A stretch of DNA of 64,000 nt, taken from NCBI GenBank assembly GCA_016839555.1, contig JAEOUA010000007.1:128001-192000 (forward strand). Direction: 5' to 3'. The notes under the pieces are model-generated. The model was not told the DNA's origin and searched no databases. It saw only the letters and a list, made by a program, of their open reading frames with translations. Of the stretch, positions 28,599 through 32,957 are shown piece after piece; the first letter of the stretch is position 1, and each line of letters starts with the position of its first letter. This stretch comes from Promethearchaeota archaeon (GTDB taxonomy: Archaea > Asgardarchaeota > Lokiarchaeia > Sigyniarchaeales > SOKP01). The position numbers were made by a program, and so were the translations under genes.

Positions 28599-28967
28599 AT
28601 GAGTTTTGATGAGGAATTTGATGAGGAATTTGACGAAGATCTTGGTGGTCCCTCGGAAAAGGCTCCAAGTAAGAAATTTAAATCGAAAACCCCAGAAATA
28701 AAAGGACCTTCCGGTGGAAAAAAGATTTCCCTCTATTTTACCTCTACAGTAGGTCCAGGAGAAAAGAAACAAAAACTTATGGTTGACAATGCTAATCTTG
28801 TTGATGCAATTAAGGAGACAGTGGGAAATATTTTCGGATTAGACCCTAATGACTTTCATTTATCTTCTGGTGGAGTTACTATGGAAGAATCAAGCCCCTT
28901 GAGCGATTACAATGTAGATGATGGAGATGAAGTATTACTCATTCCTAGCTCAACAGCAGGTAAATAA
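28599..28967 (+). CDS. Ubiquitin-like (beta-grasp) modifier with acidic N-terminal extension; C-terminus ...LIPSSTAG-K
   Basis: Ubl-like C-terminal half (PLSDYNVDDGDEVLLIP); GAGG upstream of ATG 28599; first gene of the E1-E2-JAMM-RING operon. Confidence 0.85.
   Translation: MSFDEEFDEEFDEDLGGPSEKAPSKKFKSKTPEIKGPSGGKKISLYFTSTVGPGEKKQKLMVDNANLVDAIKETVGNIFGLDPNDFHLSSGGVTMEESSPLSDYNVDDGDEVLLIPSSTAGK
28605..28640 (+). repeat. 12-bp tandem repeat encoding (FDEE)2-FDED
   Basis: tttgatgaggaa tttgatgaggaa tttgacgaagat. Confidence 0.8.
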
Positions 28968-29077: not shown

Positions 29078-30304
29078 ATGATAAAAGAATCTGATTTTTT
29101 TAGTGAAATGTTAACCTCAGAAGAACGAGAGCTATATGATAGACAATTCCGTTTAGAAGGGTGGTCTCAAAAGGTCGTTAAGAATTCTCGAGTGTTAATT
29201 ATAGGTATTGGGGGTTTAGGGTGTGAGATAGCTAAAAATCTTGCAATGCTTGGAGTTGGTCATTTAGACTTAGTTGATTTAGATGTTATTGAGTATTCTA
29301 ATTTAAATAGGCAATTATTATTTGCTGGAGCTAAATTGGGTCAGCCGAAAGCCATAGTTGCCGCTGAAAAATTAAAAGAAATAAATCCCAAAATAACTAT
29401 AAAAGCATATCACTCTTCTTTAGAAAGATTAGATCCAATTATTTATAAAAAAGCGGATGTCGTTATTGGCGGACTAGATTCGATGAACGCTCGACTTAAC
29501 CTAAATGCCCATTGTATACGATTTGGAAAACCACTTGTTGATGGAGGTGTAGCTGGATATCATGGACATATGTATACTGTATTTCCATATGTGAATGCAT
29601 GCTATGAATGTAATCCATTGCCTGTAGGTGAAATTGATGACATGGCAGCATGTACGGTGGTCGGCATACCTCGTAAACGTATACATTGTGTATTTAAAGG
29701 TGATATGGCATTTAAAGAAAAATTTGAGCGAGATCCCAATCCGAAGGATATTAATGATATAAAATTTATTCAAAAAGAAGCAAATATATTAGCTGAGAAG
29801 TATGATTTTCTCCCTAAATTCACCAAATCCGATATTTTACAGATTATAGATAGGCATGATCCGGGCATTATCACAATAAATGCCTTAATATCGGCGATGG
29901 AGTCCCATGAGGCTGTAAAAATAATACATTGGATAAACGGACATAAAGCTTTGGGGAGACCAGTGACATCATATGTAGTTTTTAATGCTATGACTATGAA
30001 ATTTTACCATATTGAAAAAAAAAGAAATCCCGAATGTCCTCAATGCGGAAATAATGTAAAAAGAGTAAAAATACAAATAAGAAAGACTTCTCCATGTGAA
30101 AATATTATAAAACTTTTACTAAATAATGGATTTGAATTAGATCCCGATTACGAGCCAATTTTAACCACAATGGATTTTAATAATATCAAAGTAGTGGATT
30201 TGGATAAAACACCGATTGAAAATGATCTTAGGAATTTTGACCTTATAACGGCTGTTGGCTTTAAGAATTTCGGCGAGATTTTTATTACATTAAATTTAGC
30301 ATGA
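29078..30304 (+). CDS. Ubiquitin-like activating enzyme E1
   Basis: YDRQ, GIGGLG, DLDVIEYSNLNRQ, CYEC and CPQC zinc site, catalytic-Cys segment ACTVVGIPRKRIHC, and a C-terminal extension. Confidence 0.93.
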   Translation: MIKESDFFSEMLTSEERELYDRQFRLEGWSQKVVKNSRVLIIGIGGLGCEIAKNLAMLGVGHLDLVDLDVIEYSNLNRQLLFAGAKLGQPKAIVAAEKLKEINPKITIKAYHSSLERLDPIIYKKADVVIGGLDSMNARLNLNAHCIRFGKPLVDGGVAGYHGHMYTVFPYVNACYECNPLPVGEIDDMAACTVVGIPRKRIHCVFKGDMAFKEKFERDPNPKDINDIKFIQKEANILAEKYDFLPKFTKSDILQIIDRHDPGIITINALISAMESHEAVKIIHWINGHKALGRPVTSYVVFNAMTMKFYHIEKKRNPECPQCGNNVKRVKIQIRKTSPCENIIKLLLNNGFELDPDYEPILTTMDFNNIKVVDLDKTPIENDLRNFDLITAVGFKNFGEIFITLNLA

Positions 30305-30403: not shown

Positions 30404-30931
30404 ATGAGTTTAAGAAGCACGAGGATATCTCAAGATTTTGCGGCATTAAAAAAAATGATAAAAAACGGAACTATAGTCCAATTAAAACCTTGGGATAAAA
30501 AAAACAAGAGTATAGACCATCTTAAGGTTACCATTGAAGGACCAAAAGGAACTGCATATGAGGGGGGATTATTTAGGTTGGAAGTAAAATATCCTCCGCA
30601 ATATCCTAAAGTTCCTCCTTTTCTAAGATTATATACCCCTATTTGGCATCCAAATTTCTGGCCGAAACCCCATGAATATAAAGGGCAGAGAAATATTTGT
30701 TTAGCGTTGATTGATCCCTCATTAATTGGCAAAAAAGGGGGTTGGTCTCCTTCAAAAACTATTGTTACTGTGATCAATGCTATTATTGCGATGTTAAATA
30801 CTCGCGGAAAATATTTTAATCCCACAGATGTTTATAATAAAAAAGCTGCTTTAGAATCTATGAATAAGCGGGATTATTTTGAGAAAAAGGTTAAACATCT
30901 TGTAAAAAAATATGCGAATAAAAAGTGGTGA
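30404..30931 (+). CDS. Ubiquitin-conjugating enzyme E2
   Basis: GPKGTAYEGGLF, YPPQYPKVPP, HPN, NICL (catalytic Cys) and WSP. Confidence 0.95.
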   Translation: MSLRSTRISQDFAALKKMIKNGTIVQLKPWDKKNKSIDHLKVTIEGPKGTAYEGGLFRLEVKYPPQYPKVPPFLRLYTPIWHPNFWPKPHEYKGQRNICLALIDPSLIGKKGGWSPSKTIVTVINAIIAMLNTRGKYFNPTDVYNKKAALESMNKRDYFEKKVKHLVKKYANKKW

Positions 30932-30943
30932 GGAGAAAGGTAG

Positions 30944-31750
30944 ATGGATGAGAATCTAAAAAGAGATTCAATTAAAGAAACATTAAAAAAAAAAGTAAGA
31001 GAGCAATTAAAAGAAGAGCTCAAGAAAGAACTAAAACAAGAGCTTTTGGATGAAATTTATCAAGAATTAATGCAAGAAGAGATCGAATTCAAACAAGAAA
31101 TAACCTCAACCTTTAAAAATAAAATTGATAAAGGGAAATCTATTCAAAAAGCAGAAATGATAAAAGCACCCCAAAAAGTACAACAGATTCAAATTTCTAT
31201 AAAAGCAGTATTAAAAATGACAACCCATGCCTTAAAATATGCAAATAAAAATATACCACGAGAAAACTGGGTGGAGGTCATCGGATTGTTGGCAGGTAAA
31301 GAAAAAGATAACATTCTCCATATTAAGAATGCATATCCAATTGGGCATGGCAATGCAATTCATGTACAAATGGATGAGCGGAGAAATAAAAGAACTGGGC
31401 ATATTAAAGCATATGAAGAGAGTAGAAAAAGAAATTTATTTATTTGTGGATGGTATCATTCTCATCCCTCTTATGGGTGTTTTATGTCAGACGAAGATAT
31501 ATATACCCAAACCGAATATCAGAAACATTGGGAAAAAGCTGTAGCCATAGTGGTTGATCCTTATGAAATAGACGGGACTTCCTATGGATTCCAGGTATTT
31601 CGATGTGATTTAAAAACTCAAAAATGGTATTCCTTACCCTTTGAAATGGAAGAATCCTTAAATGTAAGCTTATTGCCCAAAATTTTAGATTTTGTAAATC
31701 CTATTGTTGATGGAGAAGCATTATTCTTAGAATATGATGAGGAATCATAA
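30944..31750 (+). CDS. JAMM/MPN+ metallo-isopeptidase (Rpn11/CSN5-like) with N-terminal charged helix
   Basis: EVIGLL, GWYHSHPSYGCFMSDED (HxH-x7-S-x2-D) and AVAIVVDP. Confidence 0.93.
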   Translation: MDENLKRDSIKETLKKKVREQLKEELKKELKQELLDEIYQELMQEEIEFKQEITSTFKNKIDKGKSIQKAEMIKAPQKVQQIQISIKAVLKMTTHALKYANKNIPRENWVEVIGLLAGKEKDNILHIKNAYPIGHGNAIHVQMDERRNKRTGHIKAYEESRKRNLFICGWYHSHPSYGCFMSDEDIYTQTEYQKHWEKAVAIVVDPYEIDGTSYGFQVFRCDLKTQKWYSLPFEMEESLNVSLLPKILDFVNPIVDGEALFLEYDEES

Positions 31751-31823
31751 GGAATAATTAAGGTCTATAATTTCACATAATAAAGGGTAATTAAGTGAGG
31801 TATCAGAGTATTGGTGATTTTCA

Positions 31824-32957
31824 ATTAAAAAAAGTTATTTTATTCCTTTAATCATAAGTTTCATCATTGGATTTATTCATGGAGTATTAATAGAGCCATC
31901 TTTTAATCTCTTTATTTCCTGGATTTTAATTGGGTTTTGGGTTATCTTTTCTATGAAAAGTATAGCTAAAATTAGAAAATATCGGCAATTTAATTCCCCT
32001 CATAATACCTCATTTTTTATTTTAGGGATCAATACAATTGGATTATTTTATTACTATACTAGCTTTTATACAGAATTAATTAATTGGGAATTATTTCAAG
32101 AAATTCAGAATTTTACTTTTTTTAATGCGTGGATCCTTATTTTCTCGCTTCCTTATTTAGTGTATGGACTATATTCCCTCTTTAAATGCATAAAAAAATA
32201 TCATGTAATATACATATATAAAGTTAAATCCATCAATACTCGAAAATTTATAGTCTTTTATTCTGTTTTGATTTTCACAGCAAATATAATCTTTCTAATT
32301 ATTCTTTTATATGAAATTGAAATTCTTTTTTTTACTCCTTTAATTAATTCTCCCGGACTAATTTATATCTTCTATAATTTTTTTATTTTTGTTTTGATTA
32401 TTTATGCAATTGCTAAGAAAAGAACAACTATTTCAGATATTTCACCTGAATTAATAGCACAGCGAAGGGCTCAAGTAGAATCGGTTCAATCAGCACCCAT
32501 TAGATCAGCACGAAGGGCACCCTCTAGTAGAGCCTCATCCTCTAGTAGATCTCAAAGAACAATGTCTACCACAAGATCAAGAACTACTCCAAAAGTGTAT
32601 AGACCGAAAACACAAAAAGCGCGGTCAAAATTAAGTACTCAACAAAAGAAGCAAATTTTTGAAAAAATAAAAAGCATGAAACCAAAAACCACGATGCTTA
32701 CACTAGATGATTTTAAATGCATCTTTTGCTTTAATCTTCCAGAATATCCAAAAGACAAGGGAAGGGGAATAGTTCTTTGCCCAAAATGTAATTATCCTGC
32801 TCACGCTGATGAGTTTAAAGATTGGCTTAAAAATTCGAATTTATGCTCTCGATGCAGTGCAGAATTACCTGCTTCTTATAAAAGAAATCCAAAAACTGTT
32901 TCAGTGAAATTTTATAGTAAAGTCATCCAATATTATAAGAAAAAAGAAAAATTGTGA
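31824..32957 (+). CDS. Multi-pass membrane protein with C-terminal RING-like finger (putative membrane E3 ligase); probable ATT start at 31824
   Basis: About 6 hydrophobic segments, a Ser/Arg-rich linker, then CIFC-x16-CPKC-x4-H-x2-E...W...CSRC. The track start is ATG 31953, but the frame is open from 31818 behind GGTGA. Confidence 0.8.
   Translation: MKKSYFIPLIISFIIGFIHGVLIEPSFNLFISWILIGFWVIFSMKSIAKIRKYRQFNSPHNTSFFILGINTIGLFYYYTSFYTELINWELFQEIQNFTFFNAWILIFSLPYLVYGLYSLFKCIKKYHVIYIYKVKSINTRKFIVFYSVLIFTANIIFLIILLYEIEILFFTPLINSPGLIYIFYNFFIFVLIIYAIAKKRTTISDISPELIAQRRAQVESVQSAPIRSARRAPSSRASSSSRSQRTMSTTRSRTTPKVYRPKTQKARSKLSTQQKKQIFEKIKSMKPKTTMLTLDDFKCIFCFNLPEYPKDKGRGIVLCPKCNYPAHADEFKDWLKNSNLCSRCSAELPASYKRNPKTVSVKFYSKVIQYYKKKEKL

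Follow-up and report, generated by a model that had tools for sequence, protein, structure and literature searches.

A six-helix membrane protein with a RING-like finger, encoded in a conserved ubiquitin-type operon of Asgard archaea, as a candidate membrane-anchored ligase

RING ligases in membranes underlie endoplasmic reticulum-associated degradation (ERAD) and receptor down-regulation and are regarded as a eukaryotic trait; to our knowledge, membrane-embedded RING ligases that tag proteins have so far been described only in eukaryotes. Hrd1 and gp78, for example, consist of a bundle of transmembrane (TM) helices followed by a cytosolic RING-H2 finger. The archaeal RING-type ubiquitin ligases (E3s) characterised so far are, in the literature examined, soluble: our search, in which subscription journals were thinly covered, found soluble Asgard and Aigarchaeal RING E3s and no membrane-embedded RING in an archaeal ubiquitin operon. 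The protein srfp of Caldiarchaeum subterraneum is the E3 of an archaeal operon with the order Ub-E2-E1-srfp-Rpn11 and stimulates the conjugating enzyme (E2) (PMC5654768), and a Helarchaeial RING E3 ubiquitylates UEV-Vps23 (bioRxiv 10.1101/2023.07.25.550441). Here we describe a gene for a six-TM RING protein in a stretch of 64,000 nucleotides (nt), hereafter the window, from a Promethearchaeota archaeon (assembly GCA_016839555.1, contig JAEOUA010000007.1, positions 128,001 to 192,000).

The gene (window 31824-32957, + strand) is the fifth and last of a tight same-strand cluster whose other members encode a ubiquitin-family modifier (Ubl), an E1-like activating enzyme, an E2 and a JAB metalloprotease (Table 1). 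We read its product as a membrane-anchored RING-type E3 for the operon's modifier, which ends in Ala-Gly, and put the probability of this reading at roughly 0.6. It is favored because the gene belongs to the operon and encodes a six-helix membrane protein with a predicted cytoplasmic RING, and we set this level of confidence by comparison with Caldiarchaeum, whose E2 is stimulated by the RING protein of its own operon (PMC5654768).

The operon context is strictly kept. One genome per species was scanned, which yielded 171 loci, each from one species genome, that encode the six-TM RING gene, and 80 of these were fetched for comparison of gene order. The order Ubl-E1-E2-JAB-RING is preserved in all 80, as far as each contig extends, and in each of them the JAB gene lies directly 5' of the membrane RING gene. 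The operon is also syntenic in a relative with 81% identity. The window's own genome has a GC content of ~30% and a completeness of 92%, and the operon's E2 is the only UQ_con match in it.

The finger was examined in an alignment of 117 family sequences, in a full-length AlphaFold2 model built on that alignment and in a model of the domain alone. It reads C299-x2-C302-x16-C319-x2-C322-x4-H327-x2-E330-x10-C341-x2-C344, plus W334; the seven Cys/His residues, W334 and D329 are invariant in the 117 sequences, and E330 is conserved in at least 90%. For the model of the lone domain, all top Foldseek and VIA-align matches were RING or U-box E3 domains. The 50 best Foldseek matches include 3lrq, RNF4, Bmi1/Ring1b, Rbx1, EL5, TRIM32 and CHIP, with probabilities up to 1.00 and a core root-mean-square deviation of 1.8-3 Å across ~55 residues, and the full-length model also retrieves RING domains by Foldseek, the Hrd1 RING 6a3z among them. 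The finger is thus predicted to adopt the cross-brace beta-beta-alpha fold of RING/U-box domains. A preliminary description of this locus had proposed a C-terminal C4-H-E-C2 finger with a Trp and had treated it as RING-like. The ligand pattern proved invariant apart from the Glu, and the cross-brace fold was recovered by both structure searches on a model with a predicted local distance difference test score (pLDDT) of 91; placement among the eukaryotic ligand classes failed, as the finger is neither C3H2C3 nor C4HC3. Among Pfam families matched by the 117 fingers at E <=1, zf-RING_16 was found for 115 (best E 4.3e-5), Prok-RING_1 for 105 and zf-RING_2 for 32. As a separate observation, window 32694-32900 shares the pattern CPxC-x-[FY]PA-x-A-x2-F with protocoatomer-type C-terminal fingers of IFT144/WDR19, at the level of weak matches.

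The sixth ligand position holds Glu. Distant relatives of the finger occur in small soluble Asgard proteins (P0229-P0249; E 4e-9 to 4e-4 to the family profile) of ~130-250 amino acids (aa), many with an N-terminal zinc ribbon and all with the finger at the C terminus. When these are aligned with the finger, all ligand columns coincide, and the column of E330 is His (H-x2-H) in every soluble relative; divergent membrane members keep Glu in it, among them P0220, where D329 is lost. On these two grounds we place E330 in the sixth-ligand position, as the preliminary description had. Glu330 would then bind zinc and, in a cross-brace, belong to site 1 together with C299, C302 and H327; a carboxylate is known to serve as zinc ligand in some RINGs, Rbx1 among them. 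The genes of the soluble relatives at two loci (L087, 4233-4820; L090, 8001-8594) do not adjoin E1 or E2 genes. In the two contexts fetched for P0232 and P0233, an uncharacterised gene of ~285-295 aa lies directly 5', and one contig with a soluble relative also encodes ARPC4 and small GTPases. When small RING relatives were sought with a word-seeded search, nothing but fragments of the six-TM RING family came back.

The six-TM RING family comprises at least 351 proteins in an index of 5.8 billion, and its homologues are labelled Promethearchaeota, Lokiarchaeota, Hel-, Hod-, Hermod-, Odin-, Thor- and Sifarchaeota, all Asgard archaea. Among 400 sampled Asgard genomes, 190 carry the gene. Carriers make up 117 of 134 genomes in the window's own taxonomic family, 25 of 31, 7 of 12 and 19 of 22 in three families of other classes, and none in two others (0/12 and 0/19). 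Genomes with the membrane RING encode an orthologous E2 that scores E 1e-72 to 1e-113 against the E2 profile, and lineages without it have distant E2s only (E 1e-9 to 1e-35). The exceptions to this co-occurrence that were examined, such as G182, G123 and G244, sit at contig ends. Gene and E2 are both present in G138, a genome from the window's order assembled as one contig of 6.0 Mb. The membrane RING and this one E2 subfamily go together in several Asgard classes. In 60 orthologues of this E2, the HPN motif, Cys99 and WSPS are invariant, and mean column identity is 89% for the E2 versus 49% for the RING protein. The E2 is 73-91% identical between loci that share only ~38% identity in their RING proteins. 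Five genomes of one genus, g11 (G167, G169, G170, G171 and G175), contain an additional, shorter match, in 206-233-aa open frames, that is confined to linker and RING (profile positions ~200-384), which suggests a paralogue without the six-helix domain.

Several points weigh against a ligase. No Pfam RING model is matched above its gathering score, zf-RING_16 reaching 14.1-14.4 bits in the window versus a threshold of 27.4. The best sequence matches in the PDB are the C-terminal fingers of the non-catalytic IFT144/WDR19 (E 0.12-0.95), followed by E3 RINGs, and RING-like fingers can be purely structural. Glu is rare as a structural zinc ligand, and Ser342 follows the seventh ligand at a place where RING-E2 interfaces usually have Pro. 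Other RING-like open reading frames (ORFs) in the genome could also use the single E2. Co-folding of the E2 with the finger lends weak support to their pairing: the score was 0.34 and that of the best of three controls 0.00, contacts agreed to at least 97% between runs, and partner pLDDT was at least 84. Of 80 solved complexes, 58 reach the mark applied, as do 2 of 110 mismatched pairs; only 7 of the 80 reach it with a score of 0.60 or below, and so do both passing mismatches. Because RING-E2 complexes have already been solved, the pass may reflect likeness only.

It is possible, then, that the protein is a non-catalytic membrane receptor or scaffold. Its finger would tether the E2, the JAB protease or the modifier to the membrane, or stabilise an assembly in the manner of the RING-like fingers of IFT-A and GATOR2, without activating the E2, and conjugation would be E3-independent or proceed via another RING protein. 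The structural nature of the closest IFT144/WDR19 fingers, the match of 32 family members to Zf_2nd_IFT121, the Glu ligand and Ser342 (both unlike catalytic RINGs), the other RING-like ORFs and the weak co-fold all fit such a role. However, the Ile after the first Cys (I300) is nearly invariant and the helix Trp (W334) invariant, both at E2-contact positions of RING-E2 interfaces. In addition, the gene is strictly paired in its operon with that of a canonical HPN E2, which parallels the Caldiarchaeum operon with its proven RING E3 (PMC5654768). We consider a scaffold unlikely, and yet the most credible alternative to a membrane-anchored E3.

The membrane domain was modelled with high confidence (mean pLDDT 84 for the full-length protein, above 90 for the TM region), and AlphaFold2 gives six helices from residue 3 onward (Table 1). 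Conserved features include an IHG motif in TM helix 1, W33, G37, W39, the loop motif at residues 57-62, W103 and P110. This degree of conservation exceeds by far what a mere anchor would need. The linker that follows is disordered in the model, and its family-wide composition is 21% T, 17% R and 15% S. Averaged across family members, K+R number 1.6 in the N-terminal tail, 3.8 in loop 2, 4.0 in loop 4 and 24 in the linker. Loops 1, 3 and 5 are acidic and hold 0, 0.1 and 0.2. Such a distribution clearly follows the positive-inside rule and predicts both termini to be cytoplasmic, so that the finger would face the cytoplasm, where the E1 and E2 are. The preliminary description had counted about six TM segments with an ATT-extended start, ahead of a Ser/Arg-rich low-complexity linker and a finger likened to the cytosolic RING of Hrd1 and gp78, and it holds up on the helices, on the linker (disordered, basic and Thr/Ser/Arg-rich) and, by loop charge, on the orientation. 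In one locus labelled Helarchaeota (L066), TM1 and TM2 are separated by ~43 additional hydrophobic residues, which may form two more helices.

No relatives of the TM domain outside the family were detected in any of the searches made. It matched no Pfam or NCBIfam family. A profile search of 1.84 billion representative proteins gave 141 matches at E <=0.001, none of them to the TM domain outside its own family: they were family members, fragments, low-complexity matches to the linker and soluble Asgard RING proteins. The full-length model, searched against the PDB with Foldseek, returned RING matches only and none for the TM part, and a wide VIA-align search gave generic helical bundles, with Hrd1 inside the noise. 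In the ESM Atlas, a shape search returned the family itself and then eukaryotic and bacterial TM+RING proteins at TM-scores by query of 0.31 or less; a feature search gave no usable match.

The conservation of this domain raises another alternative, in which the protein is mainly a substrate of the pathway or an effector under its control: the six-helix domain would have a membrane function of its own (transport, sensing or enzymatic), and Ubl attached to linker lysines would control activity or turnover. A confidently folded domain conserved beyond the need of an anchor (S58, N61 and W103 invariant, NSPHNT) and the Lys/Arg-rich linker are compatible with this. On the other hand, no transporter or enzyme family or fold emerged from VIA-align, the 1.84-billion profile search, Pfam or NCBIfam, and an effector role leaves the invariant RING fold fused in every member unexplained. 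We regard it as improbable, and less probable than a scaffold.

The reading frame required separate attention, as it is open from TGA 31815-31817 to the stop at 32955-32957 and its first ATG, GTG or TTG is at 31953, with none between that TGA and 31953. A start at ATG 31953 would lose TM1 and TM2. Homologues of ~374 aa align across the 43 codons upstream of this ATG, and their N termini align at 31824; in the 81%-identity relative, the internal ATG is ATC. Most of the 80 related loci have a canonical start at a distance of exactly 57 codons from the conserved NSP motif downstream, and this start is preceded by GGTGA(T), a motif complementary to the 3' end of archaeal 16S rRNA. The window's clade (L005-L007, L010, L011, L013, L017 and L019) has no canonical start there and instead shows GGTGA, 6-7 nt, ATT/ATC/ATA and then AAA AAA. 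A second clade has ACG (L020, L057 and L079) or ATT (L059) where L033 and L041 carry ATG. The ATT-extended start at 31824 is well supported as the probable start because the upstream codons are conserved, the spacing to GGTGA is kept, near-cognate codons recur in relatives and ATG 31953 is not conserved; the extension assumed in the preliminary description thus appears to be real. A programmed -1 frameshift from GTG 31795 over an A7 run was considered because the 81%-identity relative has ATG at that position, and it was rejected: the GTG lies in the adjacent frame and is not conserved in other relatives, with TAA there in L010. Near-cognate starts (ATT, ATC, ATA and ACG) occur 6-7 nt past GGTGA in several Asgard lineages, and gene callers have therefore shortened the proteins, e.g., P0003-P0009.

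We regard an artefact as very improbable, be it a Cys/His pattern that arose by chance or a mis-called gene (a 334-aa four-helix protein begun at ATG 31953, or a product of frameshifting that starts at GTG 31795). The lack of a canonical start ahead of TM1 and TM2 and the adjacent-frame GTG followed by A7 would allow it. Against it stand the ligands, unchanged in all 117 sequences, and the 43 upstream codons, whose translation is conserved; moreover, the closest relative has ATC in place of ATG 31953, GGTGA with a near-cognate codon recurs and the adjacent-frame start is not conserved.

Table 1. Features of the operon and of the membrane RING gene, in window positions
Feature	Position	Strand	Basis or remark
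Operon gene 1, ubiquitin-family modifier ending ...IPSSTAG-K	28599..28967	+	PF00240, 26.4 bits vs cut-off 25.4
Operon gene 2, E1-like (ThiF family)	29078..30304	+	PF00899, E 3.7e-60; position kept in related loci
Operon gene 3, E2 (UQ_con)	30404..30931	+	PF00179, E 1.3e-24
Operon gene 4, JAB/MPN metalloprotease (Rpn11-like)	30944..31750	+	PF01398, E 9.3e-17
Shine-Dalgarno-like GGTGA, 6 nt before ATT	31813..31817	+	GGTGA(T) kept upstream of start in nearly all related loci; contains TGA of apparent upstream stop
Probable ATT start codon	31824..31826	+	No canonical start upstream of 31953; near-cognate codons at same place in relatives; homologue N termini
Coding sequence, six-TM RING protein, 377 aa + stop	31824..32957	+	
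TM helix 1, residues 3-23	31830..31892	+	AlphaFold2 helix, hydropathy, family conservation
TM helix 2, residues 27-44; helix runs on to residue 55 as basic cytoplasmic extension	31902..31955	+	
Conserved cytoplasmic-loop motif N-S-P-H-N-T, residues 57-62	31992..32009	+	S58 and N61 invariant; N57, P59 and T62 at least 90%
TM helix 3, residues 63-79	32010..32060	+	AlphaFold2, hydropathy
TM helix 4, residues 102-125	32127..32198	+	AlphaFold2, hydropathy
TM helix 5, residues 139-162	32238..32309	+	AlphaFold2, hydropathy
TM helix 6, residues 179-197	32358..32414	+	AlphaFold2, hydropathy
Basic Thr/Ser/Arg/Pro-rich disordered linker, residues 198-289	32415..32690	+	pLDDT <50 at 227-266; 25 K/R in 92 residues
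RING-like domain with flanking helices, residues 290-377	32691..32954	+	Lone-domain model pLDDT 91, fold matches, invariant ligands
Zinc-ligand core C299-C344 (putative)	32718-32855	+	

The modifier encoded by the first gene ends in Ala-Gly, not Gly-Gly, in the window and in 66 related loci. Its C terminus across those 66 loci is ...LLIP(A/S)STAG followed by 0-4 residues, and in the window by one Lys. A lead from the literature (PMC12962969) that the modifier might be a Ufm1 homologue was ruled out, as Pfam assigns it to the ubiquitin family and not to Ufm1. Two more small ubiquitin-family genes were seen on contigs C4 and C1 of genome G000: L091 (3099-3353, - strand, 84 aa), whose product ends in ...ATQAGGV, and L092 (2984-3244, + strand, 86 aa), whose product ends in ...ATQAGG. 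Neither adjoins an E1 or E2 gene, and because they stand apart in this way, more than one modifier may depend on the single E2. Complete Asgard-type operons were also found at two loci, L034 and L076, on contigs under the names of bacterial metagenome-assembled genomes (Deferrimicrobium and Nanopelagicaceae); these labels are probably due to mis-binning.

If the protein is a membrane-anchored E3, a pathway can be proposed from the genes at hand. The JAB protease would trim the modifier precursor, exposing the ...STAG end, and would also reverse modification. The E1 and E2 would charge the Ala-Gly-ended modifier, and the RING, on its flexible basic tether of ~90 residues, would dock E2~Ubl at the inner face of the membrane and promote transfer of the modifier to lysines of proteins at the cytoplasmic membrane face. 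Targets may be selected by the TM domain or its cytoplasmic loops and could be membrane proteins or the ligase itself. The sequences and models show the fold, the conserved ligands, the charge signal for topology, the operon linkage and the joint occurrence with the E2, whereas zinc binding by Glu330, activation of the E2 by the finger and the identity of these substrates are what we infer.

A further reading is that the family is an archaeal counterpart, and possibly a forerunner, of the eukaryotic membrane RING ligases, in which the six-helix domain would pick out membrane proteins inside the bilayer and the RING would tag them with the operon's Ala-Gly-ended modifier for extraction and degradation or for sorting. 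We hold this to be doubtful and would place it, in likelihood, between the scaffold and the effector described above. The preliminary description had gone in this direction by calling the protein an analog or precursor of membrane quality-control E3s. The RING fold, its predicted cytoplasmic orientation and the fixed place as fifth gene of a Ubl-E1-E2-JAB operon stand; homology to ERAD ligases went undetected in our searches, so that the likeness is one of layout, and a quality-control role would be conjecture. If the forerunner reading were true, ERAD-like or endocytic-type tagging of membrane proteins would be older than eukaryotes.

Taken together, an operon-encoded six-helix RING protein in about half of 400 sampled Asgard genomes is a concrete candidate for the first membrane coupling of tagging. 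Its E330 offers a putative natural variant in which Glu replaces a His/Cys zinc ligand of a RING, and the family provides a clear case of near-cognate starts (ATT, ATC, ATA and ACG) in Asgard genes that gene callers have missed. On the strength of sequences and models, the system deserves attention for the question of how ubiquitin signalling came to be linked to membranes.

Among described systems, that of Caldiarchaeum is close in its genes: as with srfp, the RING protein shares one operon with a ubiquitin-family modifier and with E1-like, E2-like and Rpn11/JAB genes. By its description, srfp is set apart as small and soluble, with a Gly-Gly-ended modifier, whereas here there are six TM helices and a 90-residue tether, a Glu sixth ligand and an Ala-Gly-ended modifier. 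The soluble Asgard RING proteins P0229-P0249 come from the same phylum and have an alignable finger with the same spacing and Trp, but they combine an N-terminal zinc ribbon and helical region with a His sixth ligand and are encoded away from E1 and E2, unlike the membrane-borne, Glu-bearing and operon-encoded protein described here. With MARCH and Doa10, the family shares embedding in the membrane, and its first five ligands and their spacing (C-x2-C ... C-x2-C-x4-H-x2-) resemble C4HC3; the RING-CH of these proteins is N-terminal, ahead of the TM helices, with Cys as sixth ligand, whereas the present finger follows six TM helices at the C terminus and has Glu. The RING-CH Pfam family was not among the top families listed for the finger. 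With Hrd1 and gp78, the family shares the sequence of its parts, from several membrane helices through a disordered stretch to a cytosolic RING that faces the E2. Their RING-H2 is C3H2C3, and the finger here is C4-H-E-C2. Compared with Hrd1 by structure, the RING part matches the Hrd1 RING 6a3z, and the TM part resembles Hrd1 only within noise. Kinship with Hrd1, gp78 or Doa10 is not supported because the TM domain is without detectable relatives. By the comparisons made, the protein is placed in neither of the two families that it calls to mind: its layout is that of a eukaryotic polytopic RING ligase, and its genomic logic is that of the Caldiarchaeum srfp operon.
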